A DNA stretch of 64,000 nt from an uncultured Pseudomonadota bacterium (GTDB taxonomy: Bacteria > Pseudomonadota > Gammaproteobacteria > Methylococcales > Methylomonadaceae): the NCBI GenBank assembly GCA_903928965.1, contig CAIYSZ010000028.1, positions 2,837 through 66,836 on the forward strand. The letters run 5' to 3'. This document shows, piece by piece, positions 22,564 to 45,010 of the stretch (position 1 is the stretch's first letter; each line of letters starts with the position of its first letter). A program made the translations under genes and the position numbers. Below the pieces are notes generated by a model. It had not been told where the DNA came from, did no database searches, and saw only the letters and a list, made by a program, of their open reading frames with translations.

Positions 22564-22577
22564 GAAAAGTTTCGCGA

Positions 22578-23613: not shown

Positions 23614-25218
23614 TTAAAAATCGTAGACGACTCTAAAGTCTATACGTTGCTGCCCTGGGGCGACGTTGTATTGGCGTGACATGGGGTAGCTCCAGTCGAA
23701 TTCGCCGAGCAGGTGTTTGAACCATTGGGTGCGGAGGCCGGCTCCGACGCTGGATAGCTGTTGGTTGGGTTGGGTGGGGGCGATGGGGGCCATGGTCCAC
23801 AGGTCGGCCCAGTCGACGAAGGCGATGGCGCGCAGGTTTTGGGTGTAGGCGGCGTCGTCGAACAGCAGTTTCGGGCTATGCAGTTCAAAGGATAAATTAA
23901 TGCCTTGGTCGGCCAATACTTGGGTTTGATGATAGCCGCGCACGCTTAAGGGGCCGCCGGCGGAGTATTGTTCGTTGCTGATGAGCCGGTTCAAGCTGCC
24001 TTGGCCCTGGGCGTGAATTTGGAACCGCATGTCTTCGGGCAGGATTTGCAAGTGCCTGAAGTCGCCGGTGAGGTAGACGAAATCCGGAGTCGCGCCGGTG
24101 CGCTTGTTGTTGAATTGGGTGGCGCTGTCGACCAGTCCGCGGATGGAGAAATTCGCAGCCACGTTGAGGGTAGTTGTTCGTTGCTCGGTGCGTAGCGCCC
24201 AATCGTAACCGGTCACAAATTTAAGGTATTGAATGGCGGTGTGGCCGGTGTCTTGACCCTGTAGTTGGGTGGCTTGGTCGAAGCTTTTGTAGTCGATGCC
24301 GAAAGTCAGATTGTTGAGGCCGTCGTTTACCGTCGGCAACGGTTTGACCAGCCGCAGGCCGAAGATGTCGCCGGTACCGACTACCGAGGCGCCGCCGACG
24401 CTGGCGCCAAGCTGGGTGTTGGAGCTGATGCCTACGCCGTAAAACGCCAAGCGGGTGTCGTGCCAATTAGTCGGCATGACATAGGTGCCGGACCAGACGT
24501 CGACTTGATTGGCGTTTTGCGGCGAGGTTTGAAATTGTAATGAGGCGCTATGGTATTTTTGCCACAGGTTGTCGTAGCGCAAGGAGCCGATCAAGCGGGT
24601 GTAATCGGTGCTGCTGGTATTGCGGGTGTTCATTTCCACGCTGCCGTGCAGCGGCAGATCGTCCTTGACTTTAAGTTCCACTTCCATTTGCCCCGGCGTG
24701 GCCCCGGCGCGGAATACCGGAGTAACGCCGCGGTCGGGCGCTTGTTGCGCCAAGGCGGCCATTTGAGTTTGCACGGTGGGCATGTGCGGGGTTTGACCTT
24801 CCGCTAGGGCCGGCACGGCGGCGCGGATTTTGTCCAGATCATAGTAGCGGGAGCCGGTGATGCGCTGGATGGCGATGCGGCCTTCGGTCACTTCGATGCG
24901 CACTTGGTTTTCGTTGACGTCTTGTTCGGGTATGGCGACGATGACGCTGGGATAGCCTGCTTGACGGTAGGCGGTTTCCAGCGCGGCGCGGGCTTGTTCC
25001 ACGTCGTCCACGGTTTTACCCGGTCCGAGAAACGGATATACCGCGCGTTCCAGGGTTTCGTCGTCCAGCAGGGTATTGCCGTCGATTTGAAAATCATACA
25101 GGTCGAAAGCGGGCTTTTCGCCGGCGGCGGCCGGCGGCGTGGCGTCGGCGGCGCGTGCGGCGGACAGGCCGCGGCATAGGGCTAGGACCAAAATCAGAGT
25201 CAGTTTGGCTGAAGTCAT
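23614..25218 (-). CDS. ShlB/FhaC/HecB family two-partner secretion transporter (TpsB)
   Basis: POTRA (IDGNTLL...AYRQAGYP), SVRGY motif, C-terminal beta-barrel ending in F. Confidence 0.9.
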   Translation of the reverse strand: MTSAKLTLILVLALCRGLSAARAADATPPAAAGEKPAFDLYDFQIDGNTLLDDETLERAVYPFLGPGKTVDDVEQARAALETAYRQAGYPSVIVAIPEQDVNENQVRIEVTEGRIAIQRITGSRYYDLDKIRAAVPALAEGQTPHMPTVQTQMAALAQQAPDRGVTPVFRAGATPGQMEVELKVKDDLPLHGSVEMNTRNTSSTDYTRLIGSLRYDNLWQKYHSASLQFQTSPQNANQVDVWSGTYVMPTNWHDTRLAFYGVGISSNTQLGASVGGASVVGTGDIFGLRLVKPLPTVNDGLNNLTFGIDYKSFDQATQLQGQDTGHTAIQYLKFVTGYDWALRTEQRTTTLNVAANFSIRGLVDSATQFNNKRTGATPDFVYLTGDFRHLQILPEDMRFQIHAQGQGSLNRLISNEQYSAGGPLSVRGYHQTQVLADQGINLSFELHSPKLLFDDAAYTQNLRAIAFVDWADLWTMAPIAPTQPNQQLSSVGAGLRTQWFKHLLGEFDWSYPMSRQYNVAPGQQRIDFRVVYDF

Positions 25219-25928
25219 GGCGCGCCCTCGGCTGGCGCGGGCGGTTCGGCGCTGTCGGCCGGGGCGTTTTCCGCGTCGGTTTTGGCTTCCGGCGTCGCTT
25301 GGCTGGCCTGGAACGGGGTGATTTGCAGTTGGTGCAATTGGTAGCGGTAATTTTCGGCTATATTTTGCGTTTCAACTTTGCCTATGCCGGTGAGCGGCTC
25401 CAATTCCAATGCTTGTTGCAACAGGCTTTTGTCGCGGTATTGCCGCACGATGTCTTGGTTCAGCGAGATCAGGCTGTTATTTTGTTCGCTGCATTGGGTA
25501 ATCCATTGTTCGCGTTCCTTGACCGCGGCGACCAGGAGTTGATTGTCGGCGTAAATGGCGTTGGCCTTGGTTACCGTGTCGTTGTGTTTTTGCAATAGTT
25601 TTTGCCGGTTTTCCCGTTCTTGGCCCAGTTGGCTTTCCAGATTGGTTTTTAGAGTCTCCAGGCCGGTTTTGTAACGTTCTACCTCGGCTTGCAAAGGGGC
25701 CAAGGCTTTGACGGCTTCTTCCAGTTGCTTAACCTTGATCTCCAGTTGCAGTTTGTCGTTGCGCAGGCCGTTTCTTTCCGCTTCCAGCGCGGATTTTTCC
25801 TGGCTGAGCTGGCGCACCAGGCCTTGCGCTTTTTTCATGGCCGCGCCGGCGTCGGGGGCTTTGGCGTCGGAAAAAGCCGCGGGCGAAAAGCCGATCAGGC
25901 AAAGAAGGCAATAAGCTTGGGCGCGCAT
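25215..25928 (-). CDS. Periplasmic coiled-coil hypothetical protein
   Basis: Signal peptide and long heptad region; overlaps tpsB by 4 bp. Confidence 0.8.
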   Translation of the reverse strand: MRAQAYCLLCLIGFSPAAFSDAKAPDAGAAMKKAQGLVRQLSQEKSALEAERNGLRNDKLQLEIKVKQLEEAVKALAPLQAEVERYKTGLETLKTNLESQLGQERENRQKLLQKHNDTVTKANAIYADNQLLVAAVKEREQWITQCSEQNNSLISLNQDIVRQYRDKSLLQQALELEPLTGIGKVETQNIAENYRYQLHQLQITPFQASQATPEAKTDAENAPADSAEPPAPAEGAP

Positions 25929-25938
25929 CGGATTCTCT

Positions 25939-27786
25939 TTAGTAGCGGGTGTTCAAGTCCAGGTTCAGGGTGTCGACGGCGTATTTGGGGCCGTCGATGG
26001 CGTCGGAGCTAAACCAGTTCAGGTTGAGCCAGGTGTTTTTCGCCACGCCGTATTGGCCGCCCAAGACCCAACCTTTGGCGTTGGTGCCGCCCAGATGGAA
26101 GATCGAGTCGGTAAACGCGTCTAGCACCGCGTCGCGCTGTATGTAACGGTAGGCGAAGTTGACGCTCCATTGTCCGGAGCGTTGGATTTGCATGGCGCCG
26201 ATATCGAAGCGCAATTGGTAAGCCATGGTGCGCGGGGTAATGCTTTGGTGAAATTCACTTAGGATTTGTTGTTTGTTAAAGCCTAGGTTTTGCGCGTAAT
26301 CGGCGGTGAACATCACATGCTTGTCGCCGAAGGCGGTCCAGTCGTAGATACCGGTGAAGTTCAATATTTTAAAGCCGGAGGCTAGGCCGAACAAGCAGCC
26401 TTTAGGGTCGGAACAAACTTGGCCGCCGCCGGAGTTGCTGTCGGTAATAGCCACCATGGAGTTGCCGCCTTGCAAGAATTGCGGCGCGGTCCAGTCGTTT
26501 TCGTGGCCGTTGCCGTTGGCGCTATTGTAGCGCGCGCTGATGTTTTGGTATTCATAATAGGAGCCGGCGAAGTTGAGCCGCGAGTTCTCGCCGATCAATA
26601 AGTCGGTGCCCAGCTGGCCGGCGTACAGCCATTTGGATTCGCTGGAAAAGTTGACGTTTTGGATCGGGTAGACGCCCAAGGTCAGGAACACGCTGTCCGG
26701 TGATTGCTGGCCTTGGTTGACGCCGTAGCGCGCGGTGGGCAAGGGCGGGCGGTAGCCGAGGATGCGCGCGTCGTTTTGGTTCATGTGGTAGCGGAAGCTG
26801 GTGGTGACGCCCTCGAAGCTCAAGTCCGGGTCGAATACGACGTCGGAAGAGACGAAGGGGTTGATGGTGCGGCCGCCGTAAAAACTAAACCAGTTGACGT
26901 TGTTGGCGTCGTTGTAATCGTATTGGATGAAGGCGCGGTCGATGGCGAATTGATAGCTTTGGCCGGTATTGCCCAAGGTTTGGTCGTTGGATACCGGGCT
27001 GTAGTTATTGCTGGTGGCCAGCCGCACGCCGGTTTTGATGCTGTCGTTGATTTGGGTTTCAAAGCTGAGGCGGAAGCGTTCCCGCAGCAGCATGCCATTT
27101 TTGGTGTTGTTGATATAGGCGTCGGTCAGGTTGCGCGCCAGGGCGTTCTTAAAACCGCCGTCCTGGTTGATTTGCAAATAGTTGAACGGGCCTATGCTGG
27201 GGCCGGTTTGATTGTCGGGAGCGAAGAAGTTGTTGGAGTAGCGCAAACGCATGTCGAAAGTGGGGTTGATGTCGCGCACCCAGTCCGGTAGCGCGCCGGG
27301 TACGCCCCAGCCCTCGTTCTTGGCGTCCTGCTTGACTTCGCTGACGACCTCGCCTTTGAGTTCCTTGCGCAGTTGTTCGCGGATTTCGTTTTTGACGAAT
27401 TCCGGCACATAGCCTACGTGTTTGCTTTTGCCGGCGGCTTCGGCGGCTGCGGAGGCGGCGGGCTTGCCCGCGCCTGTACTCGCGCCGGAGGCTGGATTCG
27501 GCGCGCTAGCGTTGCTGTCGCCGACGTTGGTCCCGCCCGCGCTGCCCGCGCCGGCCTTGGCGGCTGTTTCGGCTTCGGCTTCCGCCGCTTCTTGCTGCGC
27601 GCCGCTGACTAGGCCTTCGCCTTCTTGTTTATTGATGACGCCGCGTTGCACCAGAAGATCGACCAGATTGACGAAGGTGGATTTTTTCACCTTCAGCATT
27701 TCCTCGGCGTGGGCGGGCAGCGCCGCCAAAATTAGGCCGCCGGTTAGCGACAATAGCGTATGGGTAGCGATTCTTGTCATGGTCAA
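25939..27786 (-). CDS. Putative porin family outer-membrane protein
   Basis: Signal peptide; LVDLLVQRGVI, RERFRLSF, PVSNDQTLG, AIDRAFI, DAVLDAFTDSIFHLGGTNAKGW; ends DLNTRY. Confidence 0.85.
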   Translation of the reverse strand: MTMTRIATHTLLSLTGGLILAALPAHAEEMLKVKKSTFVNLVDLLVQRGVINKQEGEGLVSGAQQEAAEAEAETAAKAGAGSAGGTNVGDSNASAPNPASGASTGAGKPAASAAAEAAGKSKHVGYVPEFVKNEIREQLRKELKGEVVSEVKQDAKNEGWGVPGALPDWVRDINPTFDMRLRYSNNFFAPDNQTGPSIGPFNYLQINQDGGFKNALARNLTDAYINNTKNGMLLRERFRLSFETQINDSIKTGVRLATSNNYSPVSNDQTLGNTGQSYQFAIDRAFIQYDYNDANNVNWFSFYGGRTINPFVSSDVVFDPDLSFEGVTTSFRYHMNQNDARILGYRPPLPTARYGVNQGQQSPDSVFLTLGVYPIQNVNFSSESKWLYAGQLGTDLLIGENSRLNFAGSYYEYQNISARYNSANGNGHENDWTAPQFLQGGNSMVAITDSNSGGGQVCSDPKGCLFGLASGFKILNFTGIYDWTAFGDKHVMFTADYAQNLGFNKQQILSEFHQSITPRTMAYQLRFDIGAMQIQRSGQWSVNFAYRYIQRDAVLDAFTDSIFHLGGTNAKGWVLGGQYGVAKNTWLNLNWFSSDAIDGPKYAVDTLNLDLNTRY

Positions 27787-27823
27787 TAGTTGAGTAAGTT
27801 TAATTCCTTTTCACGCCAAGATG

Positions 27824-28495
27824 CTATATCTTGGCGGTTAGCCGCATGCGTATCGGTTGCGGCAAGTTTTCCGGCGGCGTTTTGTCCGCGGGGATTTTTA
27901 AGCGCGCCAATGCCGAGCGCAGCGCTTGGTCCACTTCCGGCTTGCCGCTGCCGGTAGCCAGTTCGGCGCGGCTGATTTGGCCGTTGGCGTCCATCCAGAC
28001 GTCTATGATGGCGGTATAGCCGAATTTCATGGCCGCCGTGTCCGCCAGTAGCGGTTGGATGGCATCTTCGATTTGGCGCTTGACGTGGCCGCCATACCAG
28101 ATGACGGCGTTGCCGCCGCCGCCGCCCAACAGCGAGTGGCCGCCCTTCCGCGCGGCCAGGCCGAAACTGTCCGAGCCGGCCCCGCCTTCCGCGTCCAGGC
28201 CTAGTTCTTCCGCCGGCGGTTCGTTGCTCTCATCCGGCGTCGGTTCGGGCTCCGGCTCCGGTTCGGGCGTTTGCTCCTCCACTTTTTCCTGTTCCGGCTC
28301 CGGTTCCGGCGGCTTGACCTCGGGCGGCGGAGGCGGCGGCGGTTGCAGCATGGTGATTTGTTGCGCCACTTTCTTGGTTTGCGGCGCTTTTTCACTATGA
28401 CTGATCAAATAGGCCACTACGCCGACGATGATCAGCGTCAAAAAGACTCCAATCAGCGCCGGCAGGCGGCGCAGCCATTTAGTTTTTTGTTCCAT
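27824..28495 (-). CDS. TonB/TolA-like energy transducer (TonB C-terminal domain)
   Basis: Single TM anchor, PPPPPP/EPEPEP linker, GSGKPEVDQALRSAL C-terminal domain. Confidence 0.85.
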   Translation of the reverse strand: MEQKTKWLRRLPALIGVFLTLIIVGVVAYLISHSEKAPQTKKVAQQITMLQPPPPPPPEVKPPEPEPEQEKVEEQTPEPEPEPEPTPDESNEPPAEELGLDAEGGAGSDSFGLAARKGGHSLLGGGGGNAVIWYGGHVKRQIEDAIQPLLADTAAMKFGYTAIIDVWMDANGQISRAELATGSGKPEVDQALRSALARLKIPADKTPPENLPQPIRMRLTAKI

Positions 28496-28507
28496 GGGCT
28501 TGTGCGC

Positions 28508-28912
28508 TTACTTAACCAGTTTTTGCGTTACCAAGCCGAGTTGGGAGATTTGCAAGCGGGTGACGATGTCCAGCACTTCTATGACTTTTTGGTATTGCAC
28601 GCTGGCGTCGGCTTTAACCACCACTGGCAGATCGGGTATCGCGGCTTTGTATTGCGCCAGGCGCGTCTCCAGCTCCGTTAGGGTCACCGGATAAGTGTCC
28701 AGGTATATCGTGCCGTCGGGCGTGATGGAGATGGCCTTGGTTTTCGGTTTGGCCAGCGAAGGAGTGCTGCTGGCCTTGGGCAGATTGACGGTAATGCCTT
28801 GTACGGTGGCGGTGGTCATGATGATGAAGATCAACAGCAACACATAGGCCACGTCCAGCATCGGCGTGATGTTGATATCGTCATAGACTTTCTCTTCGGA
28901 TTCGACTTTCAT
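28508..28912 (-). CDS. exbD: ExbD/TolR family protein
   Basis: INITPMLDVAYVLLLIF, VNLPKA, VKADASVQYQKVIEVLD. Confidence 0.9.
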   Translation of the reverse strand: MKVESEEKVYDDINITPMLDVAYVLLLIFIIMTTATVQGITVNLPKASSTPSLAKPKTKAISITPDGTIYLDTYPVTLTELETRLAQYKAAIPDLPVVVKADASVQYQKVIEVLDIVTRLQISQLGLVTQKLVK

Positions 28913-28918
28913 GTTTGA

Positions 28919-30739
28919 TTAATCTCTTTTGCCATTGCCATTGATATATTTGGCGGCGGTGCGCATGGACAGCAAGGCCAGGAATTCGTCCGAGAACACG
29001 CGCATGCCGGCGGTGATGTCCTTGATTTGCGTCAGCAGGTAGTTGTAGGAGAACAGCGCCGGAATAGCCACCGCTAACCCGGCCACGGTGGCCAGCAAGG
29101 CGGCGGCGATGCCGGGCGCGATGGAGTTGATGTTGACGTCGCCGGTGGCGGCGATGGCGGCGAAAGTGATCATAACTCCGACCACGGTGCCGAGCAGGCC
29201 GAGAAACGGGCCGCCGGCGATGGCGATGGTCAGCAACACCATGTTTTTGTTCAGGCGTTGGCTTTCGAGCACGATTTGCGAGTCCAATTTGACGTGCAGG
29301 TAATTCCACGCCTCGGCGGTGATCGGGCTGTCCACGCCGCCTTGCAGTTGTTTCATTTCGTGTATCGCGGTGTGATATAGGTGGTACAAGGTCGAGCTTT
29401 GGAAGTGATCGTGCCTGCCGACCAGGGCGGTGAGGAACTCGGAATCGGACAGTTCCCGCTCCTCGGCGTCTTCTTCTTGATCCAGATCGCCTAAATGACT
29501 GTGGTCCAGTTCGCGGTAGCGGGCCAGAAATAATTTATTGTCCTTGACGATGCGGTTGATGACGATGGTTTTAGTAACCATGACCAGCACCGCGATCACC
29601 AGCATGATGCCGGTGAGGCCGATGATCACCCAGCCGTCGATGGTGACGTTGTGTACGATGACCATGAAATGGCTGTCGCTGCTGGCATTGGTTTCATCCT
29701 CGCCGAAATTCAATACCGCGAAATCCGGGCTTTGGCTGCGGTAGGCCAGCTTCAGCCAGTCTGGGCCGCGGGCGGCGGAGGCAATTTGCACTTCGTCCAA
29801 AAGTCCGGCGAAGTTGGCTCCGATTTCGATTTTGGGGTTGGCGCTGGTCAAATGGATGGCGGTTTGACCAACCGGCGCGCCGTCGAGATAGAGGGTCAGC
29901 CGGTCGGCGGCGGCGGTTAGTGCAACATGCCGCCAAGCGCCGGGGGTTAGCGCGACAGGCGCGGTCTGCTCTCCGTCCCAGCTTGCTTGCAGATTAAGCC
30001 CTTGCAGGGTCAGCGACAGAGTATGCGCGCCGTCGCCGGCGCGCAAAATTTGCGCGGCGGATTGCGCTTGCTCCACCCGCAACCACGCGCTGAAGGTCCA
30101 GCCTTTGTCTGGGGCTAGCGCCAATTGCGGGGCCGGGTTGACGATCACGCCGGCTCCGTTGTTGAATTGCAGCGCCGCGCCTATCCAGCCGCCGGGCGTG
30201 ACTTGCGCGTCGGAACTCGCGGCGTGACTGGCGTAGGCGGTGGCGTCTTGCGGGACGATTTCTCCGTCCTTAAAGTGGTAAACCAGCCCTTGCGCTACGT
30301 CGTACAGGCTTTTGCCGTCCGAGGCGTCGGCGGCATTGGCGTTGCCGTAATACATCCAGAAGCTGTTGGTGTCCGTACCGCCTTGCACTTGTGTTTGTTT
30401 GACCCATACGAAACCGATTTCGTTAATGGCGTCGATGTGTTCGATTTGAAAGGCCAGCGGCGTTTTGTCGTCCTTGAGAAACCGGATGTCGGCCCCGTTT
30501 TCGGCCAGTTCAGCGAAATAACCGAAATTACCGGCATGCAGGCGGATCAGAAGCGGAAAATCGGCGAGCGAGCCCTGGATGTCCGCGCCGGTGGCCGACG
30601 CATCCAAATTGATTTGCCGGCGCGAGCTCCATTCGCCGTTCCACCATGCTTGGGCGTTTAACGAGGTTAATAGCGCGCACAAGCCTATCAGGGAAACCGC
30701 TAGGCGTTTGCAATGGGTATTAGCGTCGATTATTTTCAC
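28919..30739 (-). CDS. exbB: DUF2341 + LamG + ExbB/MotA proton-channel fusion
   Basis: WWNGEWSSRR, LIRLHAGNF...GADIRF (DUF2341), LamG-like middle region, LTIAIAGGPFLGLLGTVVGVMITF...GIAAALLATVAGLAVAIPA. Confidence 0.9.
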   Translation of the reverse strand: MKIIDANTHCKRLAVSLIGLCALLTSLNAQAWWNGEWSSRRQINLDASATGADIQGSLADFPLLIRLHAGNFGYFAELAENGADIRFLKDDKTPLAFQIEHIDAINEIGFVWVKQTQVQGGTDTNSFWMYYGNANAADASDGKSLYDVAQGLVYHFKDGEIVPQDATAYASHAASSDAQVTPGGWIGAALQFNNGAGVIVNPAPQLALAPDKGWTFSAWLRVEQAQSAAQILRAGDGAHTLSLTLQGLNLQASWDGEQTAPVALTPGAWRHVALTAAADRLTLYLDGAPVGQTAIHLTSANPKIEIGANFAGLLDEVQIASAARGPDWLKLAYRSQSPDFAVLNFGEDETNASSDSHFMVIVHNVTIDGWVIIGLTGIMLVIAVLVMVTKTIVINRIVKDNKLFLARYRELDHSHLGDLDQEEDAEERELSDSEFLTALVGRHDHFQSSTLYHLYHTAIHEMKQLQGGVDSPITAEAWNYLHVKLDSQIVLESQRLNKNMVLLTIAIAGGPFLGLLGTVVGVMITFAAIAATGDVNINSIAPGIAAALLATVAGLAVAIPALFSYNYLLTQIKDITAGMRVFSDEFLALLSMRTAAKYINGNGKRD

Positions 30740-30801
30740 AATATCCTAGTGAGGTTAGGGCAAGGTTCGGAAATAGTTTGAGAGCTTGTTTTAAGTAATA
30801 A

Positions 30802-30817
30802 AGCAATAGTTATGCCA
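30802..30817 (-). promoter_or_regulatory. Sigma-54 -24/-12 promoter for the exbB...tpsB operon
   Basis: Minus strand TGGCATAACTATTGCT. Confidence 0.8.
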
Positions 30818-30856
30818 TATAGGCTGTGTCCATATAACAACAACTTGCATGCAAAT

Positions 30857-30915
30857 TGTTGATTGGATGTTGATATATCAGCATGTTGTGTTGATTAGGT
30901 GTTGATATTTGAGCA
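30857..30915. promoter_or_regulatory. Tandem enhancer (UAS) sites
   Basis: TGTTGATT-GGA-TGTTGATATATCAGCA (30857-30883) and TGTTGATT-AGG-TGTTGATATTTGAGCA (30889-30915). Confidence 0.7.
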
Positions 30916-30952
30916 GATGGTTGCTATATACGCGAAAACATATCGCACTTTC

Positions 30953-33900: not shown

Positions 33901-36900
33901 TCAAATTGTAGTTCCATGAAAAGCCGGCTTGGATCACGTCCTGAAAGAGGCTGGTTTGATCCAGGGTCAGAGTATTGCCGTCGGTCGAGGCGGGGAGGAT
34001 GTCGTCGGTTGGAATTGGAGTGGTGGCGAGGGCGTCGCTGATGCTGGCGTTGATGTTAAGGTCGCCGGCGGCGCTGAGCGTCAAAAAGCCGGCCACGTCG
34101 CCGTCGCCGTCGCCGTAGCGCCAGCCGGAATTCCAGCTAAAGGTGTTGCTGTTCCAGCCGCTGCCGCCGGATTCAAAATCCCAGGCGTCCTTAAGCGTCA
34201 AATCGCCGTCGCTGCGGACTTCCACGCCCGGACTCAAGATCAAGCCGGCGGGCAGGGTCAGCGCCGCGCCATTGGCGTCAATATAGCCGGCGGCGTTCAT
34301 GAAGTTGGCGGTATCGGTTTGCCATTGCGTGATGTTGGCGGCGGTGATGATGTTGGCGTTAACCGTATTGGCGTTGATGTCGTTATAGATGCGCGTCGCC
34401 TCCAGGGCGTCGCCGCCGGCGCGCGCGCCTATGATTTGCGTGTTGAAACCTACGGCGTTGATTTGGTCGTTGGCGTCCTTGCGGCCGGTGCGCAGATGCG
34501 CCAGGCCGCCCTCGCCGGTTCCTGAAGCGGAGACGTTGATGGTCCCGCCGGCCAGATTCAGCACCCCGCTGCCGCTGCTGTTTTTATATACGGTGTCCAA
34601 GGTGACCGAGCCGCCATTATTATTACCGGATAGCGCGTTGGCCAAAATGCTGGAGCCGGCGGCTAGGGTGATGCCGGTTTCGCCGTCCAGCGTGACGCTG
34701 CCGGCACTAGCGCCGCCGGCGTTGATTTCACCGGCCAGGATCACCGCGCCTTGGTCGGCGGCGATTTGCACTTGCTGGGCGGTAAGCGTGGTTCCGGTAT
34801 TGATTTGCACGTCGCCGGCGGTTTGCTCCAGGCTGATTTGTCGGGTAAAGCCGGCGGCGGCGATTTTTTGGTCCAAGGCCGCGACATCACCCAGATTGGC
34901 GGCGGTCAGTTGCAGCGCGCCGCCGGTGACGCCGGAGGCCAGGCTAGTGGAGCCGCCGCTCGCGTTTATACTGCCGTCCCACACGAATTGGCCGGCCGGC
35001 GCTTGCACGCTCAGAGTGCCGGCATTGCTGACTTCTTGCTTGTTCAGCACCGCGCCGTTTAATTCGACGTTGACGCCGCCGGCCAGGGTGACGTCGCCTT
35101 GGGCGGCGGAGAGGCTGAGTTTGCCGGCCGGGGCGGCTTTATACGTCGTACTGGTGTAGTTAACGATGCGGCCGGACAAATCCACGCCGCCGCCTTGTAA
35201 ATTGATGGGGCCGTTGCCGGTGGCCAGGCTTAGATTGCCGGCCGGCAGATTGAATTGCGCGGTTCCGCTGATACTGCCGCCGCTGATGCTCCAACTAGCC
35301 CCAATGCCGGGGGTGGCGGCCGCGGTTGCGCCGCTGGCGGCCAGCGTCACGTCGTAGTTTCCGGCGTTGATGCTGGTGGTCGCGCCGGCCCCGCCGATCA
35401 GTTGCGCGGCGGTCAGGGTTAGATTGCCGGCGACGCTCAGCGCGCCGGGGCTGGCGGTGACGGTGTCGCCGGAGGCGTTCTGACTGGAGCCTTGGCCGCC
35501 GATGGCGTCCTTGGCTTCTAAGTTGACTTGGCTAAAACCGGTGATGGCGTATTGTCCCGCGCCCAGGGTGATGTCGTTGGCGTTTAAGTTCAGAGAACCG
35601 CCGCCGGTTCCGGCGTGGGCGGAAACCGCGCCGCCGCTATTGCTCAAGGTAATGCCGGTGGTGGTTCCGCTGACGCCCAGGCTGACGTTGAGTCCGGCGT
35701 TGGCGAAACCGTTGATGGCGGCGGCGGAGATTTCGATGGTTTTGCTGTTGACGGAGGCCGCGCCGTAAAGGTCTAAATCGCCGCGGCTGTTAAGCGAGAT
35801 GTCGGACAGTTTTTCCGGCAGCGCGGACAATACCAGGCCCGGCGTGCCAGCCGGCGCGTCGCCGAGGCTGATGCGGTTGGCGGTCAGCGCCAAGGAACCG
35901 CCATCCATTTGAATGGAGCCGTCGAACACGGTGTTCAGACTGGAATCCAGCAGCATTGATTGGCTGGCGTTCAGCGCCGCGCCGGCCGCGACGTTCAGCG
36001 TTCCTTCCGCGCCGGCGATGGCCGCGCCGCGAACGATAGTGTCCTGGCCGCCGTTGGACAGGCGCAGGATGGCGCCGTCGCCGTTGCCGAGATTATTGCT
36101 CAAGGTCAAGGTTTCGCCGGCTACTTTGTTGGCGCTATGGGTGTCGATTTCGGCGTTGGCGGCTATATTGACTTGGTTGACGGCGGTGAACAAAATTTCA
36201 TTGCCGGTCAAGGCTTGCGCGCCGTTGACGTCGCTAGCCACCGTGACCGTATTGGCGGTAATGGTGATGGCGTTGCCGTTGCGCTTGCCGCCCAATAACA
36301 GGCTGGGGGCGTTTAATTTAGTTAATTGTCCGGCCACCAGGCCGACCACGCCGGAGCCGAGAGCGCTTAAGTCGCTATTTGAACCCACCACGGTCAGATT
36401 ATTGCCGCTGATGTTGACTTGGCCGCCTAGGCCCACCAGGCCGCCGAAACTGGCCGGATTCGCCAGCAGCGCGGCGTTCAAGTTGAGGCCGGCGGCGGCG
36501 GCGAGTGTCAAGCCGCCGGCGTCCCGCGGCAGTTGCGCGCCGGATTGGCTAAAGAATTGATCGGCCAGATAAGCGGTGAATTGCGATGGGCTGGCGCTGT
36601 TGGTATTGCTGGTGATGACGCCGGCGGCGGATTCCGAGAGGGAGCCGGTGAACAAAGAGCCGGGCTGTACTTCAAAACCTTGGGTTAGGGAATTGGCGGC
36701 GGCGGTTCCGGCGACGCCGTAGCGGCCGGCTTCTATGGTATAGCCGGACGCGGTTTCGGTATTTTGCAGCAGGCCGCTGGTTCCGGCGACCGGGGTGACT
36801 AGAAACGCGCCGGGCAATAGCGCGTAATGCGCCGGCAACAGTGTATACCAACCGGCGGCCAGTCCCGCGCCGCCGTCCAGGTAGACGCTTTCGCCCATGC

Positions 36901-39900
36901 CGAGGCTGTTTAGGCCCGAATTGGCGTATTGCGTGGGATCGTAAGGGGTTAAAATATTGTCCACGCCGGGAAGTATGGCGTAGGAAGTGGCGCTGTTCAA
37001 CGCGTCGCTACTGCCGCCGTTGCCGGGTATGAATTCATAGGCGTACAATTCGCCGCCGCCGTTTAGATCAATGGTGGCGTTGGTTTGCAAGTCTATGCCT
37101 TGCCCGCTGAGCGAAAGACTTTTCTGCGGCAAGTTGGCGGCGGTAATGACGATATTGTTGCTGCCCGATAAAGGATATAGCCATTGGCTGCCGCCTTCGC
37201 CGACGCCGAACGGGACCACCGCGCCCAGGCCGGAAACCGAGGTAACGCTACCGGCGGTCAATTGCAAGTTTTGCGCGGCGTTCAAGTTAAGAGAGCCGAA
37301 CGGGGCGTCGAGCACGCCGCCCTGAATAATGTTCCTGGCGTTAATCGTAACGCCCCCCCCGGCCGACAACGGGGTTTGCGTATTGTCCTGGCCCGTGGTT
37401 TGCAGGGTCACGGAACCGGAGACGTTGAAGGTGTAATTGGTCAGGGTGGCGGGATAGATGCGTTCTGCGCCAATGACCAAATCGCCGGCTAGATTCAGTT
37501 CGCCGAGGAAATTTTTATTGCTGGTGTTGGAATCACCTAGCATGCGTACATCGCCCCGGCTTTGCAGATCGACCTGATCGAAACCGTTGAAAGCGACGCC
37601 GCCCAATAAATCCACGCCTTGGGCCGCTACCGTGAATTGAGCGTTTCCGGCGACGGCTTTGTTGGCTAGTAAGTAGTTGTTGGCGGCGATATTGACTTTA
37701 CTGGAGCCGAGTTCGACATAGGCCGCGGTAAGCGTTACCGAGGCGGCGGCGGACCCGGCCTCAATGCTCGGGCTGTCGAGGATGATTTGGCGTTCCGCGG
37801 CGAGCGAGACGTCGCCATTGAATTGAACGGCGCCGGTCAGAGCGCCATTATAGGCTTGCGCATCTGTTTTCAGGCTGATGGAGCCGAAGCCGGCGGCGTT
37901 GATGGCGTCGGCGCCGAGAAAACCTTTGTCGGCGTCGGCCACTGGCGCGTTGGCGCCTTCGACCAGTTGCACGGCGGGCGCGCCAGCGCTAATTTCCAAA
38001 AGGCTGAAGAGTTGCGGATTCAGTTGATCAGGAAATACTCCGCCTGCAATCTGGGGCGATGGTTCATTTAGCAGGGAGCGATCCAAGATTACCGACAAGG
38101 TTCCGCCCAAGGTATTGGGGCTACTGGCGGCGGCTTTGAATGCACCGCCGGCGATGATGCCCTGGCCGGATGCTAGATTGATAGAGCCGCCGTTGCCGGC
38201 GACCAGGGTGGAGGTATAGCCAACATTGCCATTGGCCCCGGTTTGTAATTGATCCAGATTGGCTGAGCGGGCGGAGACGTCGATCAGCGAGCCGGATTCG
38301 GCGACAATGTAACCGCGGTTGGCGGTCAGATTGACTGTGCCGCCATCCTTGACCACGCCGCTGGTCAAGCCGTTGATTTTGGGTTGGTCAATGACCGCGC
38401 CCGGCGCGAGAAGTTGGCTTGCGCCGCCGAGCCAGATGCCTTGATTGGCGAAATAGCCTAAATCGTTATTCGCCACATTGATAGTCAGCGAGATGTTTCC
38501 GGCCGGGGCGCTGATGACGCCGTCCGCGTAAATTGAGGTGTCGGAGCTCAGGCTGACCTTGCCGCCGGGTTCGACGCCGATGAAACTGCCGGCGCCCAAG
38601 ATTAGGGATTGCGCGCGGTTTTGGGTTTGGGTTTCGGCGAAGCCAAGGCTAAGATTGACCGGATTGCGCGTGTCGGCTGTTAAGAGCACGGGTTGGCTAA
38701 TGGCGCGCAAGTTGGCGCCGCTGGCTGTCTGTTGCGAATCCGCGTTCAGTTGTAAATTCTGTTGCAGCAGATTGAATTGGGCGTTTTTCTCAACCGTTAA
38801 ACCGTAGTTATTGGAGGTCAAGCTATAACTGGCAAACCCGCTTTGTTGAAAAAACGCGTCGGTGAATATCAAAGGCGCGGCTGATTGGGCGTTATTGACT
38901 TGGGCCAGATTGTCGGCGAGGATGATTTCGGCGGAGTTAACACTGAGTGAGCCGTCTTGTTGCAGGCCCCAGGCGCTGAGAGAGCCGTTTAATATAACGT
39001 TGGCATAAGCGGCGGTTAGGCTGATGGCGCCAGCGGAGCCGTCGCTTATCGCGCCGCTGGCTTGCAGCCAGGCCCCTGCGTCGGCGCTGATGCGGCTGCC
39101 CGGGGCCAAGGTCAAGTTTCCTTGTTCCGTCTTCAGTGTGACCTTGCCGCCGTTGATATTGATAAGGCCCGGAGTTTGGTTGTTTTGCAGCGCCAGCCAA
39201 TCATTGACCCAGTGTCCGCTGACGCTAATCAGCGCGGTTTTGCCCAGTGTGGTGGCGTCGTTGTTGAGTTCGACCGTGCCGGAGGGATTGATGATTTGAC
39301 CATTGATGTCGGTATTGCTCGCGTTGATTTGCAAGTCACCCGCTCCCGGCAGCCGCAATACGCTGTTCTGAGTTTGGGTGAAGGGGGCGTTATTAGTACT
39401 GATGATGATGTTTTGCAAGCCGGAGTTACTGAGCATGGCGCTGTTCAAATTCAACGCCACCGGTTGGCCGGCTGTGCCGGCGGCGGGGAATGCCTGATTT
39501 TCGGCAATTGACAAGCCGCTATTGCCGTTGCCGAGCACCACGGCTTGATCGCTGGATAGGTTGCCATAGTCCAATTTGATGGTCAGCTCGCCGCCGGCGG
39601 CGCGGTCAGAGGCGGTGCGTTGGTAAGCGCCGTTTTCTGCTTGGCCGTGGATGCTTGCGTCCAGCAGCGCGTTGTAACTCGAAATACTGACCGCGCCGGC
39701 GGCAAAGCCCTGGATGTAGCTTGGGCTGAAACTGGTTTGATTGACCAGCGCGGTATAAACCAAATTGGGGCTGGCCGTGCCTAGGTTATACAGTTGGCCG
39801 TTGGATTGCAAATAGGTGGTGGAGATATCCGCGCCTTGGTAGGCGATGGAGCCGCCGGAAACGTCCAGAATCGAGCCGGCGGCGGCGATGACGTCGCCGG

Positions 39901-41551
39901 TGGAAGTCAGATTAATGTTGCCGCCGGCGGTGCTGCGCGCCTCGACATCGTTTTTCAGCGCTTGCACCGGATAGCTAATGTCGGCGATGGGTACGCTAGC
40001 GATTAAGTCGCCGGAGGAATCCGTGGTGATGGTGGCGTCGCGGATGTCCACGCTGACGGTTTTGCCGTACAGCACGCCGGTGCGTTGGGTGGGCGAGTCG
40101 CGCAATTCGTTGGATTGCAATTTGACCTGTACTATGTTGTTCCGCACCGATGCAATCACGTTTTTGACGCCGGATACGTCGATTTTGGCGCCGTTCGCTA
40201 GGTAGACGCGGGCGTCGCCTCTTTGCGTGGGTGAAGCCGGGTTGTCTTGAGCGTTGACGTTGACGATGCCGGAGTGGGCTTGCACGAGGGCGCCGCTTTC
40301 GATGTTAATCTGATGGCCGTCCAGCTCAATGTCGGATTTCGGTTGGCTTTGCACGGCCAAGGCTAGACCGGAGGAGTTGTCCAGAGTGACTCCAGTAAAA
40401 CTGCCGGAGCGCAAATTTAGGGTGGCGCTTTGTCCTAGGGTGTCGCCGTAATCCGTGCTTCGCGTGGTGGCGGCTCCTTCCAGCAGGCCGTTGGTATTGG
40501 TAGGATTTTGCAGGCCTTCTTGTGCTTGCAACCTTACCTGACCGGCCAATTGGGTGGAGGTGCTGGCGGAAACGATGCCGTCTTGATTAACGGCGAAGCC
40601 TATCATGCTGATGTTGCCGCTTTTGGCGTAAACGGCGCCGGAATTATTGATTTGACCGCCGACGCCGACTTCAACCAGCAAGCCGCGCACCGAGGAGTCG
40701 GTGCTGTCTTGCAAATACACTTTGTCCTTGGCCGCCGCCAGAATCACTTGGCCGGCATTGGCGGTAATGGCGCCTTGATTATTGATGCTGGAGGCGGCGA
40801 GCAAAATGATGCCGCCGTTGGCGTTGGTTTGTATATTGGCGTCCTTTGCCACGCTAATGGGCGCAAGGCTGATCTCAATTTTATGGCCGCTGGCATCTAG
40901 AATATAATTGCCGTCTTTGTCTTGCAGGTATTGGCCCGATGCGCTGACCAAGGCCGCACCTTGGCTAATGACGGTTCCAGGGCTGGCTTGATAGGCGGCG
41001 TTAAATACGTTGCCGATGCCGGTTTGCAATGCACTTTGGCTGATGCCAAGGGTGGTGGCCACCAAGGTGTTGACGTTGACGCTGGAGCCGGGTTCAAAGA
41101 TAAAGCCGTCTTGGTTGACTAGATACACCTGGCCGTTGGCGTGTAAGGTTCCGAAAATCGTGCTGGCGTTGGCGTCGCCGATATCGTTGAGTACGATGGA
41201 GGCAGTGGAGGTTTGGTGGAAATCGACAGTATAGCCCTTGCCGATGTCGAAACTGTGCCAATTAATGATGGCGTTGTTGCCAGGGTCGATGTTGAGGGTA
41301 TGACCGTTTAAAATTTCGCTGGCGGAGCCGGATAGAGTAGGCAGGGTAAGGGTTTGGCCGGGAGACAGGGTAGGGTCCAGCAGTTGGTGGGTGGTGGGGT
41401 TTTCACCTATGGGCAGCGCCGGGTTCGCGGCGGCGGGACTAAGACCAAAGCCGAAAGCCATGCTGCCGGCGATAATGCCGCGAATGGCGCGGGTTAACGG
41501 TTTTGGATGCGGGTTGAATGGCGCGCGGGGGGATGATGCGGACGTGGTCAT
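30953..41551 (-). CDS. Filamentous haemagglutinin family exoprotein (TpsA), 3532 aa, with C-terminal DUF3739-type domain
   Basis: Signal peptide; TPS domain (IINWHSFDIG...IFGTLHANGQVYLVNQDG); G/A/S/N-rich beta-helix repeats; C-terminal NQSRVFTLGGGDITAWSSAGSIDAGKGAKS. Confidence 0.92.
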   Translation of the reverse strand: MTTSASSPRAPFNPHPKPLTRAIRGIIAGSMAFGFGLSPAAANPALPIGENPTTHQLLDPTLSPGQTLTLPTLSGSASEILNGHTLNIDPGNNAIINWHSFDIGKGYTVDFHQTSTASIVLNDIGDANASTIFGTLHANGQVYLVNQDGFIFEPGSSVNVNTLVATTLGISQSALQTGIGNVFNAAYQASPGTVISQGAALVSASGQYLQDKDGNYILDASGHKIEISLAPISVAKDANIQTNANGGIILLAASSINNQGAITANAGQVILAAAKDKVYLQDSTDSSVRGLLVEVGVGGQINNSGAVYAKSGNISMIGFAVNQDGIVSASTSTQLAGQVRLQAQEGLQNPTNTNGLLEGAATTRSTDYGDTLGQSATLNLRSGSFTGVTLDNSSGLALAVQSQPKSDIELDGHQINIESGALVQAHSGIVNVNAQDNPASPTQRGDARVYLANGAKIDVSGVKNVIASVRNNIVQVKLQSNELRDSPTQRTGVLYGKTVSVDIRDATITTDSSGDLIASVPIADISYPVQALKNDVEARSTAGGNINLTSTGDVIAAAGSILDVSGGSIAYQGADISTTYLQSNGQLYNLGTASPNLVYTALVNQTSFSPSYIQGFAAGAVSISSYNALLDASIHGQAENGAYQRTASDRAAGGELTIKLDYGNLSSDQAVVLGNGNSGLSIAENQAFPAAGTAGQPVALNLNSAMLSNSGLQNIIISTNNAPFTQTQNSVLRLPGAGDLQINASNTDINGQIINPSGTVELNNDATTLGKTALISVSGHWVNDWLALQNNQTPGLININGGKVTLKTEQGNLTLAPGSRISADAGAWLQASGAISDGSAGAISLTAAYANVILNGSLSAWGLQQDGSLSVNSAEIILADNLAQVNNAQSAAPLIFTDAFFQQSGFASYSLTSNNYGLTVEKNAQFNLLQQNLQLNADSQQTASGANLRAISQPVLLTADTRNPVNLSLGFAETQTQNRAQSLILGAGSFIGVEPGGKVSLSSDTSIYADGVISAPAGNISLTINVANNDLGYFANQGIWLGGASQLLAPGAVIDQPKINGLTSGVVKDGGTVNLTANRGYIVAESGSLIDVSARSANLDQLQTGANGNVGYTSTLVAGNGGSINLASGQGIIAGGAFKAAASSPNTLGGTLSVILDRSLLNEPSPQIAGGVFPDQLNPQLFSLLEISAGAPAVQLVEGANAPVADADKGFLGADAINAAGFGSISLKTDAQAYNGALTGAVQFNGDVSLAAERQIILDSPSIEAGSAAASVTLTAAYVELGSSKVNIAANNYLLANKAVAGNAQFTVAAQGVDLLGGVAFNGFDQVDLQSRGDVRMLGDSNTSNKNFLGELNLAGDLVIGAERIYPATLTNYTFNVSGSVTLQTTGQDNTQTPLSAGGGVTINARNIIQGGVLDAPFGSLNLNAAQNLQLTAGSVTSVSGLGAVVPFGVGEGGSQWLYPLSGSNNIVITAANLPQKSLSLSGQGIDLQTNATIDLNGGGELYAYEFIPGNGGSSDALNSATSYAILPGVDNILTPYDPTQYANSGLNSLGMGESVYLDGGAGLAAGWYTLLPAHYALLPGAFLVTPVAGTSGLLQNTETASGYTIEAGRYGVAGTAAANSLTQGFEVQPGSLFTGSLSESAAGVITSNTNSASPSQFTAYLADQFFSQSGAQLPRDAGGLTLAAAAGLNLNAALLANPASFGGLVGLGGQVNISGNNLTVVGSNSDLSALGSGVVGLVAGQLTKLNAPSLLLGGKRNGNAITITANTVTVASDVNGAQALTGNEILFTAVNQVNIAANAEIDTHSANKVAGETLTLSNNLGNGDGAILRLSNGGQDTIVRGAAIAGAEGTLNVAAGAALNASQSMLLDSSLNTVFDGSIQMDGGSLALTANRISLGDAPAGTPGLVLSALPEKLSDISLNSRGDLDLYGAASVNSKTIEISAAAINGFANAGLNVSLGVSGTTTGITLSNSGGAVSAHAGTGGGSLNLNANDITLGAGQYAITGFSQVNLEAKDAIGGQGSSQNASGDTVTASPGALSVAGNLTLTAAQLIGGAGATTSINAGNYDVTLAASGATAAATPGIGASWSISGGSISGTAQFNLPAGNLSLATGNGPINLQGGGVDLSGRIVNYTSTTYKAAPAGKLSLSAAQGDVTLAGGVNVELNGAVLNKQEVSNAGTLSVQAPAGQFVWDGSINASGGSTSLASGVTGGALQLTAANLGDVAALDQKIAAAGFTRQISLEQTAGDVQINTGTTLTAQQVQIAADQGAVILAGEINAGGASAGSVTLDGETGITLAAGSSILANALSGNNNGGSVTLDTVYKNSSGSGVLNLAGGTINVSASGTGEGGLAHLRTGRKDANDQINAVGFNTQIIGARAGGDALEATRIYNDINANTVNANIITAANITQWQTDTANFMNAAGYIDANGAALTLPAGLILSPGVEVRSDGDLTLKDAWDFESGGSGWNSNTFSWNSGWRYGDGDGDVAGFLTLSAAGDLNINASISDALATTPIPTDDILPASTDGNTLTLDQTSLFQDVIQAGFSWNYNLNAGGNVNLAADYQTLDPLGSGQTVTAQVVVRTGTGAIDVNAGNNIVFNKNLNNSDTSNNASAIYTVGTTAQYTINDLIAGNVPGMPPQPANQSLQDYIAGLDQTKLSQLLRYGLLDPTQFGLTNLFYAEYPTNGGNITLAAGGDIQGVQSGQAMTDWLVRTSGWDNGTANSANSEPTAWGINISGDMFNSASNNTLPNGDTVFGKDNRNFNQNVGALGGGNVSIQAGGSVNTLSVMIPATGKPMGVLTALANANANAAWSSNGTVVNGGGNLNITAGQNITGGEFYVAAGTGDLQAGEAINSYSATVAGNSQTVGVTLDLGDGTFNLQARQDIDVSSVMNPTLFSQATLPDYGQKNNDARFFTYTANSAVNLLSTAGNVQFLNNGATIAALDNLPLLNESGVEYDIYPGAVSAAAISGDIRIDKSMILYPSPQGNLQLLAYNTIGLNLAAGTSSIDISMSDADPSLLPGVADPAPSLDGDISSKSYLTRELLDPNSNGNQASMHALIPVHDCALQTQACSNQTPLIDALHGNLSFPASAEFTLWLPEAGDVIAGGNITNFSLQGQNLNASDVTLIQAGGSISYDTPINANGVILENNEAITLAGPGQLQVIAGGNINLGGSVGIQTVANLNNPALSATGASIQVLAGAGGTGSALDFNNFIAKYQSQYPELQGLSGLSSDQQRAQIYKFLQVLFKEISRSASLAAAAPQNKRYDLYQIGYQAIHALFPAKTKYSGDIDLVFSQIKTESGGDINLLTPGGSINVGLAGALAGVIKGASDLGIVAETTGNVNVLTNNDLNVNQSRVFTLGGGDITAWSSAGSIDAGKGAKSAVSAPAPVASVTPAGQILITYPPVISGSGIQAIGGGNVYLAAPVGVVNAGEAGISGNNIIIAATAVVGASNISASGATVGVPAAVVVPTVSGADSAAASAAKTATQTSSTDNTGNSASDAQSKNPVTLLSMDLLSFGGCSVSDIKENKKGCGG

Positions 41552-41721
41552 GGCAGAAAGTGCGTGTTGGTTTCAGGATTAAATTCAATAGGTAAAGTCA
41601 TTTAAACGCTATAGCCGTTTTAATAGTCGCATAAGCGCAATAAGTATCCGGGTGCGCATGGGTAGTGGTTGGCCAAAGGCCTTTTATGTCTCATGAACTT
41701 AAGTCATTTTGCTAAGTACTC

Positions 41722-41767
41722 AAAATAAAAAAGCGTCGGCATACCCTAGGCAGGGTAATGTCGACGC
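41722..41767 (-). terminator. Intrinsic terminator
   Basis: Minus strand GCGTCG-ACAT-TACCCT-GCCT-AGGGTA-TGC-CGACGC followed by TTTTTTATTTT. Confidence 0.8.
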
Positions 41768-41888
41768 ATTTTGTCTTTCCATTTGTCTTTCCATGTTCCT
41801 GTGCGGCCACTCCTTTGAGGTTTCCCTTTGGCCTGTTCCTGCAACATCCCTGTTTTAAGTCGTCCGTTACTTGATTTTGTCCAATGTT

Positions 41889-42092
41889 TGCGCCGTTCCG
41901 TTAAAACTCCGTTTCTGGCGTATCCTGCCACCTCCGTTGTAGGGGCCAGTCACTTGACCCTGCCGCTTACCCTGCGTGTGCGCCGTTCCGTTGAAAGTCC
42001 GTTTCTGGCGATTCCAGCCACTTCCGTTGTGGGGGCCAGTCACTTGACCCTGCCGCTTACCCTGCGTGTGCGCCGTTCCGTTGAATATCCGT
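41889..42092. repeat. 90-bp tandem repeat, about 2.3 copies
   Basis: Unit begins TGCGCCGTTCCGTT at 41889, 41979 and 42069. Confidence 0.95.
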
Positions 42093-42226
42093 ATTCGGCA
42101 ATTCCCGTCACATCCCTGATGGAGCCTGTCCTAGACTCGGTTGCTTCCTGCTTACGCCTAATGGTTTATCCTTGGCAAAGCACATCCTTGTGCGGTAATC
42201 CTTTAGTTAAACCGATTCAAACGAGA

Positions 42227-44994: not shown

Positions 44995-45010
44995 GGCAAT
45001 AAATGTGCCA
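44995..45010 (-). promoter_or_regulatory. Sigma-54 promoter for the two surface-protein genes, with adjacent IHF-like site
   Basis: Minus strand TGGCACATTTATTGCC; AATCAATAATTTA (IHF consensus WATCAAN4TTR) at 45016-45028. Confidence 0.85.

Follow-up and report, generated by a model that had tools for sequence, protein, structure and literature searches.

Two-partner secretion (TPS) requires no input of energy at the outer membrane; why, then, should the two genes of a TPS pair stand on either side of genes for an ExbB-ExbD-TonB motor and a porin? The question is raised by a 64,000-nucleotide stretch of DNA from an uncultured gammaproteobacterium of the Methylomonadaceae (NCBI GenBank assembly GCA_903928965.1, contig CAIYSZ010000028.1, positions 2,837 to 66,836; hereafter the window, in whose own numbering all positions without a contig name are given), part of a 3.25-Mb genome assembly that is 92% complete. 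An earlier note, made from the sequence alone, had described seven minus-strand genes at 23614-41551 as a hybrid envelope machine coupled to the proton motive force, in which TonB would act on the porin or on the secretion partner TpsB in spite of the absence of a TonB-dependent receptor. Domain searches recovered the same seven genes with the same coordinates and identities: tpsA, exbB, exbD, tonB, a Porin_5 gene, a gene for a coiled-coil protein, and tpsB. Immediately upstream, and in the same orientation, are genes for two secreted proteins, here called V and X. The window as a whole encodes no TonB-dependent receptor; its large open reading frames (ORFs) are BamA, DnaE and similar proteins. 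We write the gene set as V-X-(S)-A-B-D-T-P-C-(S), where A is TpsA, S is TpsB, B, D and T are ExbB, ExbD and TonB, P is Porin_5 and C is the coiled-coil protein. The closest homologues of these proteins are found in Methylococcales.

We asked whether this gene set recurs, using an evenly drawn, class-wide sample of 401 gammaproteobacterial species. A full-length Porin_5 protein is present in 27 of the 401, and all 27 also encode DUF2341 in an ExbB-type frame of ~600-730 amino acids (aa). Among the 374 species that lack Porin_5, by contrast, DUF2341 occurs in only 7, mostly in far larger, unrelated frames (Fisher p = 7e-36); short partial Porin_5 matches in other porins of ~400 aa were excluded from these counts. 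The genes are also physically linked: in 26 neighbourhoods drawn from ~20 families, with a guanine-plus-cytosine (GC) content of 41-74%, B-D-T adjoins P in 24, C lies downstream in 24, and tpsA is found within 20 kb in ~23. Within the Methylococcales, 80 porin loci, Methylomonas and Methylotuvimicrobium strains being represented, show the order A-B-D-T-P-C in nearly every case with sufficient flanking sequence. Loci from other classes of the phylum have S-B-D-(T)-P with tpsA alongside (5/5), and four of these five read S-B-D-(T)-P-(C)-A, a mirror of the split TPS pair seen in the window. The co-occurrence on which the earlier note had staked its proposal is therefore borne out, both by the species counts and by linkage in the 26 neighbourhoods and the five loci of other classes.

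The position of tpsB varies. Cassettes were seen in the orders S-A-B-D-T-P-C, A-S-B-D-T-P-C and A-B-D-T-P-C-S, and, among the 80 Methylococcales loci, a tpsB behind C is confined to the window's closest orthologues. The upstream genes travel with the rest: of 16 further loci examined with a profile, 15 have a member of the X family immediately before tpsB or tpsA, and in at least 4 of these 16 X is itself preceded by a V-type protein whose C-terminal signal is the same. Together, these data strongly support the conclusion that the TPS pair and the motor, porin and coiled-coil genes are one inherited unit, spread over many families and at least two classes. The unit is a nine-gene cassette that includes X, and, because tpsB occupies several positions, the split TPS pair is one permutation of it. 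Neither the nine-gene extent nor the strict pairing of Porin_5 with LamG-ExbB is reported in the literature that we searched.

At two loci from a single family (L125 and L126, in genomes G009 and G200), the Porin_5 gene adjoins tpsA and the DUF2341-ExbB gene is on another contig or at a distance of ~28 kb, so that a divided cassette need not be a lost one.

A comparable series of genes has been described in Pseudomonas aeruginosa: PA0690 (pdtA), PA0691 (phdA), PA0692 (pdtB), PA0693 (exbB2), PA0694 (exbD2) and PA0695 (tonB4), followed by PA0696 ("putative outer membrane porin"), PA0697, PA0698 (YbjN family), PA0699 (PpiC-type isomerase) and PA0701 (LysR) (PMC7035377, PMC2729926, PMC5422565). 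Phosphate starvation induces the series by way of PhoB and sigma-VreI (PUMA3) (PMC2729926, PMC7035377, PMC4971064), and Llamas et al. (2009) observed that homologues of the TPS proteins, of ExbBD and of PA0696 are found together in several bacteria (PMC2729926). Its Ton genes have been called "still uncharacterized" (PMC7035377, PMC2729926, PMC5422565), and the literature searched yielded no functional work on the motor or porin genes (tonB4, PA0695-PA0697; DUF2341 with ExbB). The link between the window and P. aeruginosa rests on a locus of our collection (L115, in genome G333, 6.5 Mb and 63% GC) that encodes TpsB, DUF2341-LamG-ExbB, ExbD, TonB, Porin_5, a 208-aa coiled-coil protein, YbjN, PpiC and LysR. 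Published accounts give PA0692-PA0701 in exactly this succession, from which we take L115 to be a Pseudomonas-type locus, and the six proteins that it shares with the window are all homologous to the window's (6/6). Judged by its gene content, the window is thus a member of a published, mechanistically unexplained locus type.

The two loci are alike in gene set, in the order B-D-T-P-C, in nutrient-starvation control, predicted in the case of the window, and in the nearby presence of a PstS-like secreted protein (LapA in P. aeruginosa). They differ in several ways: firstly, tpsB lies between tpsA and exbB in P. aeruginosa and at the end of the motor operon in the window; secondly, the window has no vreAIR, hxc or phdA; thirdly, it has no Pho box, and sigma-54 promoters with a private activator stand instead; fourthly, X is a sulfur-free PstS-fold protein rather than LapA; and finally, the window TpsA ends in a cysteine loop. 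What is new here is the gene order, the sigma-54 regulon and the sulfur-free binding protein, whereas the locus type itself is published.

The same genome has a second complete cassette on another contig (C36), in the order V, X, TpsB, TpsA (4041 aa), ExbB-LamG, ExbD, TonB, Porin_5 and the coiled-coil protein. Its proteins are 31-69% identical to those of the window, and the two X proteins ~26%. A third group, on contig C114 (59498-72496), consists of a TpsA (3367 aa) beside divergently transcribed genes for V-like (266 aa) and X-like (541 aa, 11 cysteines) proteins. There is no tpsB, motor or porin gene near this TpsA, and one or other of the complete cassettes may supply what it needs.

We next considered what the individual proteins are. 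TpsA matches the TPS domain PF05860 (E 9e-18, 65.5 bits against a cut-off of 33.5) and TIGR01901 (E 2.7e-19, 68.9 bits against 29.1), and carries a C-terminal DUF3739 (PF12545, E 6e-29); TpsB matches POTRA_2 (60.4 bits) and ShlB (59.7 bits). These matches identify a two-partner (type Vb) system with an Omp85-type TpsB. Nearly all cassette TpsA proteins have the sequence ...(S/T)V(E/D)V(I/L)G(F/Y)G at or shortly before their C-terminus; in the window protein a conserved ...LLSFGG motif is followed by a C-x12-C loop, and the same C-x12-C ending is present in 23 of 54 relatives. The pair is comparable to that of anchored TpsA proteins of the HMW1/HxuA type, in which a C-terminal loop of this sort is retained in the periplasm and locks TpsA in TpsB (PMC5422565). 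Because that loop is periplasmic, the C-terminus of the window's TpsA fibre is, by analogy, probably within reach of the motor. In the Haemophilus influenzae HxuCBA and HMW1 systems, a C-terminal disulfide loop holds TpsA on the cell, and the window TpsA has a candidate for such a loop; in the Hxu system the periplasmically anchored TpsA captures a nutrient source at the surface, with TonB-dependent uptake as the next step (PMC5422565). Unlike the window, however, Hxu uses a 22-strand TonB-dependent receptor and the housekeeping TonB rather than a porin and a dedicated motor, and the sequence relation between the two is confined to the TPS domain.

The product of exbB has an N-terminal signal sequence, a periplasmic extension made of DUF2341 and LamG (Laminin_G_3), and a MotA/ExbB channel domain. 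Its MotA_ExbB match (89.7 bits) and the ExbD match of its neighbour (100.6 bits; both Pfam) identify the proton-channel and ExbD/TolR-type subunits of a TonB-ExbB-ExbD system. The TonB-like protein has a transmembrane helix, a proline-rich spacer and a TonB_2 C-terminal domain (Pfam, 28.1 bits against a cut-off of 22); with NCBIfam it scores 26.0 bits for the TonB C-terminal domain (cut-off 27.1) and 26.9 bits for TolA (cut-off 59). For ExbB and ExbD, the NCBIfam TolQ and TolR models outscore the ExbB and ExbD models, all of them below cut-off. Since Ton and Tol models give similar NCBIfam scores, none of which reaches its curated cut-off, we place the motor, on these scores, in a separate Ton/Tol-like clade. 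No cognate TonB-dependent transporter (22-strand barrel, plug and TonB box) accompanies it in the window, and the linked outer-membrane protein has a predicted 16-strand porin fold.

That protein matches Porin_5 (PF16930) over model positions 2-535 of 535 (E 1.8e-168). In a structure model with a predicted local distance difference test score (pLDDT) of 75, the barrel runs from residue ~171 to the end and is preceded by N-terminal helices and a disordered linker. A fold search returned OmpM1 first, then OmpF, PhoE and DcaP, the best matches being 16-strand general porins, so the earlier description of a putative porin agrees with the predicted fold, which is not that of a TonB-dependent transporter. 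OmpM1 of Veillonella and DcaP of Acinetobacter likewise have a 16-strand barrel after a helical periplasmic extension; the window porin differs in having no SLH domain and in an N-terminal motif specific to Porin_5. We know of no link between the OmpM1 or DcaP porins and a Ton motor. The motif, hRVxYVP(E/D)xVK followed by an amphipathic helix, lies immediately N-terminal to the barrel, and it is the best-conserved N-terminal part in 27/27 aligned porins from many families, including the Pseudomonas type; in the window porin it reads HVGYVPEFVK. From this conservation, it may be a strand-addition site for a C-terminal domain of the TonB/TolA type.

The coiled-coil protein, the counterpart of PA0697, carries a signal peptide and combines a long coiled coil with a conserved C-terminal region. 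Its match to DUF3450 (18 bits) falls short of the cut-off of 32.6 expected of a TtpB-type protein, and NCBIfam gave no useful match for either this protein or the porin. Vibrio TonB2 systems combine an accessory TtpB (DUF3450) with TtpC and an enlarged ExbB-family subunit, and serve ordinary TonB-dependent receptors. The window resembles them in adding periplasmic and coiled-coil accessories and an enlarged ExbB-family subunit to a Ton motor, the coiled-coil protein being weakly DUF3450-like; it differs in that this match is below cut-off and in having neither TtpC nor TtpD.

X was described in the earlier note as PstS-like and V as carrying a VPxPA tag; each description holds in part. An AlphaFold2 model of X built from 37 homologues (pLDDT 85; predicted template modelling score 0.87) was compared with the PDB by Foldseek, and the top 43 matches were all PstS/DING phosphate-binding proteins, with E down to 2e-7. 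The likeness is therefore one of fold and not of sequence, as X has no Pfam or NCBIfam match; weak matches to PBP_like_2 were obtained for the C114 paralogue (E 3.7e-4) and for some X orthologues, most of them below cut-off. V ends in VPVPAGVWLFLSGL...RK, a VPLPA/PEP-CTERM-like signal that is visible in V and in its paralogues and orthologues, but its score for TIGR03370 is 18.5 bits against a cut-off of 25.35. Three exosortase-family genes are present in the genome. The note had named V and X as possible substrates; they could equally be binding partners.

The claim that the genes are tightly packed applies to exbB through tpsB, where spacing ranges from -4 to 37 bp (a 4-bp overlap at the closest), and these six genes therefore form one operon. 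It does not extend to tpsA and exbB, which are separated by 213 bp with a promoter inside (Table 1). That promoter combines a sigma-54-type site (TGGCAY-N5-TTGC) with a repeat (ATCAACA-N4-ATCAACA) of which chance alone would give 0.4 copies in the window. Pairs of repeat and sigma-54 site with starts 89-91 bp apart occur five times in the genome, and four of the five are in the window, upstream of the exbB operon, of V-X, of a gene for an OscA-like DUF2292 protein and of a gene for a sigma-54 activator. At the exbB, V and OscA-like gene promoters, the sigma-54 site starts 89-90 bp downstream of the repeat start. The architecture is kept in window-type orthologues of other genomes. The activator, of 350 aa, has no sensor domain, and the presence of the same repeat and sigma-54 site before its own gene suggests positive autoregulation.

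The fifth pair is on contig C96 (24292-26739, 29249-31078), where it precedes genes for a secreted, nearly sulfur-free PAP2/vanadium-haloperoxidase-like protein (535 aa) and a VPxPA-tagged protein (190 aa); a gene for a 609-aa sigma-54 activator lies 2.5 kb away.

Table 1. Genes and promoters of the cassette and its predicted regulon (window coordinates).
Feature	Coordinates	Strand	Description
V	44922..44023	minus	299-aa secreted protein, VPxPA/PEP-CTERM-like C-terminal sorting signal
X	43960..42227	minus	577-aa secreted protein, predicted PstS/DING fold with large insertions
tpsA	41551..30953	minus	3532 aa; TPS domain, DUF3739, TIGR01901
exbB	30739..28919	minus	606 aa; DUF2341, Laminin_G_3, MotA_ExbB
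exbD (exbD/tolR-type)	28912..28508	minus	134 aa
tonB-like	28495..27824	minus	223 aa; TonB_2, 28 bits
Porin_5 gene	27786..25939	minus	E 1.8e-168
Coiled-coil gene	25928..25215	minus	237 aa; signal peptide, weak DUF3450
tpsB	25218..23614	minus	534 aa; POTRA_2, ShlB; last gene of six-gene operon
OscA-like (DUF2292) gene	45254..45469	minus	71 aa
Sensor-less sigma-54 activator gene	50796..51848	minus	350 aa; candidate cassette regulator
exbB-tpsB operon promoter	30802..30906	minus	Sigma-54 site TGGCATAACTATTGC 30817-30802; ATCAACA-N4-ATCAACA at 30874-30857 and 30906-30889
V-X promoter	44995..45100	minus	Sigma-54 site 45010-44995; repeat 45100-45083; starts 90 bp apart
OscA-like gene promoter	45563..45667	minus	Sigma-54 site 45578-45563; ATCAACA-type repeat 45667-45650
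Sensor-less activator promoter	51938..52043	minus	Sigma-54 site 51938-51952; repeat 52026-52043

Several features of the surroundings were also recorded. Between X and tpsA, the 3' region of the V-X transcript (41718..42226, minus strand) includes a 505-nucleotide stretch (41722-42226) that has 26 GGA on the coding strand versus 1 on the other, includes a 90-bp x 2.4 tandem repeat (41889-42105) and ends at an intrinsic terminator (41767-41725; -20 kcal/mol, z -5.2). The stretch has no match in Rfam; its appearance is that of a sponge for CsrA/RsmA or of a 3' untranslated region under regulation. Just downstream of tpsB is an intact ccdA-ccdB toxin-antitoxin pair (22252-22823), and upstream of the OscA-like gene is a 311-aa ORF (45777-46712) that has no family match and that, by eye, resembles a degenerate EAL-type domain.

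The regulatory sites set the window copy apart from other cassettes. No canonical Pho box is present in the window at up to 3 mismatches, and we reject the PhoB control known from the P. aeruginosa locus type for this copy on that ground. The genome's own pstS does have a Pho box (TTGTCATAAAATTGACAT), and Pho-box-like sites lie upstream of V and of exbB in the C36 cassette. In C36-type loci such a site is fixed at -57 to -71 from exbB, and similar sites are found in many other families, implying that most cassette copies are under phosphate-starvation control, in line with what is published for Pseudomonas. The window regulon recalls SfnR and OscA of pseudomonads instead. SfnR is, going by the references given in PMC8234197, a sigma-54 activator without a sensor domain; in the window, too, a sigma-54 activator that lacks a sensor shares a small regulon with an OscA-like DUF2292 gene. 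Unlike the pseudomonad case, this regulon serves an envelope machine rather than sulfonate monooxygenases; the likeness to SfnR is one of build, and the OscA match is below cut-off.

The composition of the proteins points in the same direction. X has no cysteine and no internal methionine in 577 aa, and among 106 X homologues (33-56% identity) the mature chain is free of both residues in 78, with at most 5 in the remainder. By contrast, the C36 and C114 paralogues of X have 8-11 cysteines, and X proteins of Pho-type cassettes from other families have 6-14 cysteines and 3-10 methionines. Sulfur amino acids are almost absent from V and from the OscA-like and PAP2-like proteins as well, and five of the six motor-operon proteins are lower in cysteine plus methionine than their C36 paralogues (5/6). 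The 71-aa DUF2292 protein matches the NCBIfam "sulfur starvation response protein OscA" with E 3e-11. We reject low cysteine plus methionine alone as proof of sulfur economy, as other secreted proteins of the genome share it; the sulfur argument is based on the contrast of X with its paralogues and with its Pho-type orthologues. The window copy is most likely a sulfur-starvation version of the cassette, because sigma-54 promoters take the place of Pho sites, an OscA-like gene belongs to the regulon and X is without sulfur amino acids.

Beside the cassette, on the opposite strand (47263-50785), lie genes for a cysteine desulfurase, a family 2A encapsulin of the SrpI type and a cysE-like acetyltransferase that is extended at its N-terminus.

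What, then, might a Ton motor do between the genes of a TPS pair? The interpretation that we favour, to which we give an even chance of being right, is that the cassette encodes a starvation-induced surface scavenging machine, in which a TPS fibre and a PstS-fold protein capture an oxyanion that enters through Porin_5 with the help of a private motor. TpsB would export the giant TpsA fibre and retain it on the cell; X, and perhaps V as a surface protein with a PEP-CTERM-like tag, would bind the oxyanion nutrient at or near the fibre; the nutrient would enter through the porin; and the dedicated B-D-T motor would couple to the conserved periplasmic N-terminal motif of Porin_5. The coiled-coil protein, as a putative periplasmic accessory, and the LamG domains of ExbB may form part of the coupling between motor and porin. 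What the analysis shows is which genes are present, their homology and co-occurrence, the folds, the promoter motifs and the amino-acid composition; which nutrient is taken, which way it moves and what TonB contacts are elements that we infer.

A number of observations weigh against the scavenging machine. 16-strand porins normally work without energy, and to our knowledge no TonB-gated porin has been established; the TonB target proposed here is a guess from conserved candidate motifs in the sequences. Searches with the X sequence, both alone and as a profile, found nothing meaningful in Pfam, NCBIfam or the PDB, and X has no linked ABC permease. No sigma-54 site is recognisable upstream of tpsA. 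On the sulfur side, the OscA-like match is below the equivalog cut-off, low cysteine and methionine are common among the secreted repeat proteins of this genome, and they could reflect resistance to oxidants, given the PAP2/haloperoxidase-like protein in the same regulon. Finally, single mutants of tonB4 and PA0696 in P. aeruginosa show no virulence phenotype, a result that is uninformative on function either way (PMC2729926).

The strongest competitor, which we nevertheless consider unlikely, would have the motor serve secretion itself: TonB or the LamG part of ExbB would grip the periplasmic C-terminus of TpsA, and the proton motive force would serve to complete the passage of the fibre through TpsB, to hold it there, to draw it back or to let it go, leaving the porin and the coiled-coil protein with structural roles. 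Such a grip is suggested by the strand-like motif near the C-terminus of almost every cassette TpsA and, in the window's clade, by the C-x12-C loop that recalls HMW1 and HxuA (PMC5422565). Gene order is consistent with it as well, since in the window tpsB belongs to the same operon as the motor genes, in many other loci it stands immediately before exbB, and TpsA and motor are linked in ~90% of loci. Set against this are the established independence of TPS from energy at the outer membrane and the C114 TpsA, which has V and X as neighbours and no adjacent motor or porin. Moreover, the porin that co-occurs so strictly has a normal diffusion-porin fold, and the PstS-fold partners and Pho boxes favour the capture of a nutrient.

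Returning to the scavenging machine, its sulfur-starvation version can be challenged separately. The loss of cysteine and methionine from X, V and other secreted members of the regulon might protect the surface from oxidants rather than save sulfur, with the sigma-54 regulon answering some other signal. The PAP2/vanadium-haloperoxidase-like protein encoded behind the fifth regulon promoter and the many cysteine- and methionine-poor secreted proteins of the genome are in keeping with this; it is made quite improbable, however, by the OscA-like sulfur-starvation gene within the regulon, by the adjacent cysE, SrpI-type encapsulin and cysteine desulfurase genes, and by the reduced cysteine plus methionine of inner-membrane and periplasmic cassette proteins relative to C36 (5/6).

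A further alternative dispenses with specific transport: a TolQRA-like motor would act on a stalked porin that bridges outer membrane and periplasm, stabilising or reshaping the envelope while starving cells deploy the very large fibre. ExbB, ExbD and TonB do match the TolQ, TolR and TolA models as well as or better than their Ton counterparts, if always below cut-off, the best fold match of the porin is OmpM1, a stalked porin of outer-membrane attachment, and there is a weak match to GltJ. Yet the cassette includes no Pal, TolB or peptidoglycan-binding domain, and the constant PstS-fold protein and nutrient-type regulation would be left without explanation; we regard envelope tethering of this kind as very doubtful. 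That independent TPS and TonB systems, both of them common, came to lie side by side by chance is ruled out for practical purposes by their strict co-occurrence and by linkage conserved across many families and at least two classes despite permuted gene orders.

There is also a wider suggestion, which we put forward tentatively and with some doubt: that these cassettes form a modular class of outer-membrane scavengers driven by the proton motive force without a TonB-dependent receptor, in which one private Ton/Tol-like motor would work an anchored TPS fibre, a PstS-fold capture protein and a stalked porin. Paralogues within a cell would be specialised for different nutrients; in this methanotroph, one copy would answer to phosphate under PhoB and the other to sulfur under a sensor-less sigma-54 activator, the latter with secreted parts made without sulfur amino acids. 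Since 2009, exbB2-exbD2-tonB4-PA0696-PA0697 beside pdtAB in P. aeruginosa have awaited a function; the strict pairing of LamG-ExbB with a stalked porin, in the absence of a TonB-dependent receptor, brings a non-canonical role for a Ton/Tol motor within direct reach of experiment. The methanotroph genome lends itself to comparison, as its two paralogous cassettes differ in the starvation signal predicted for each and one of them has a binding protein free of sulfur. If true, the reading would reveal a general route by which environmental bacteria scavenge scarce oxyanions.

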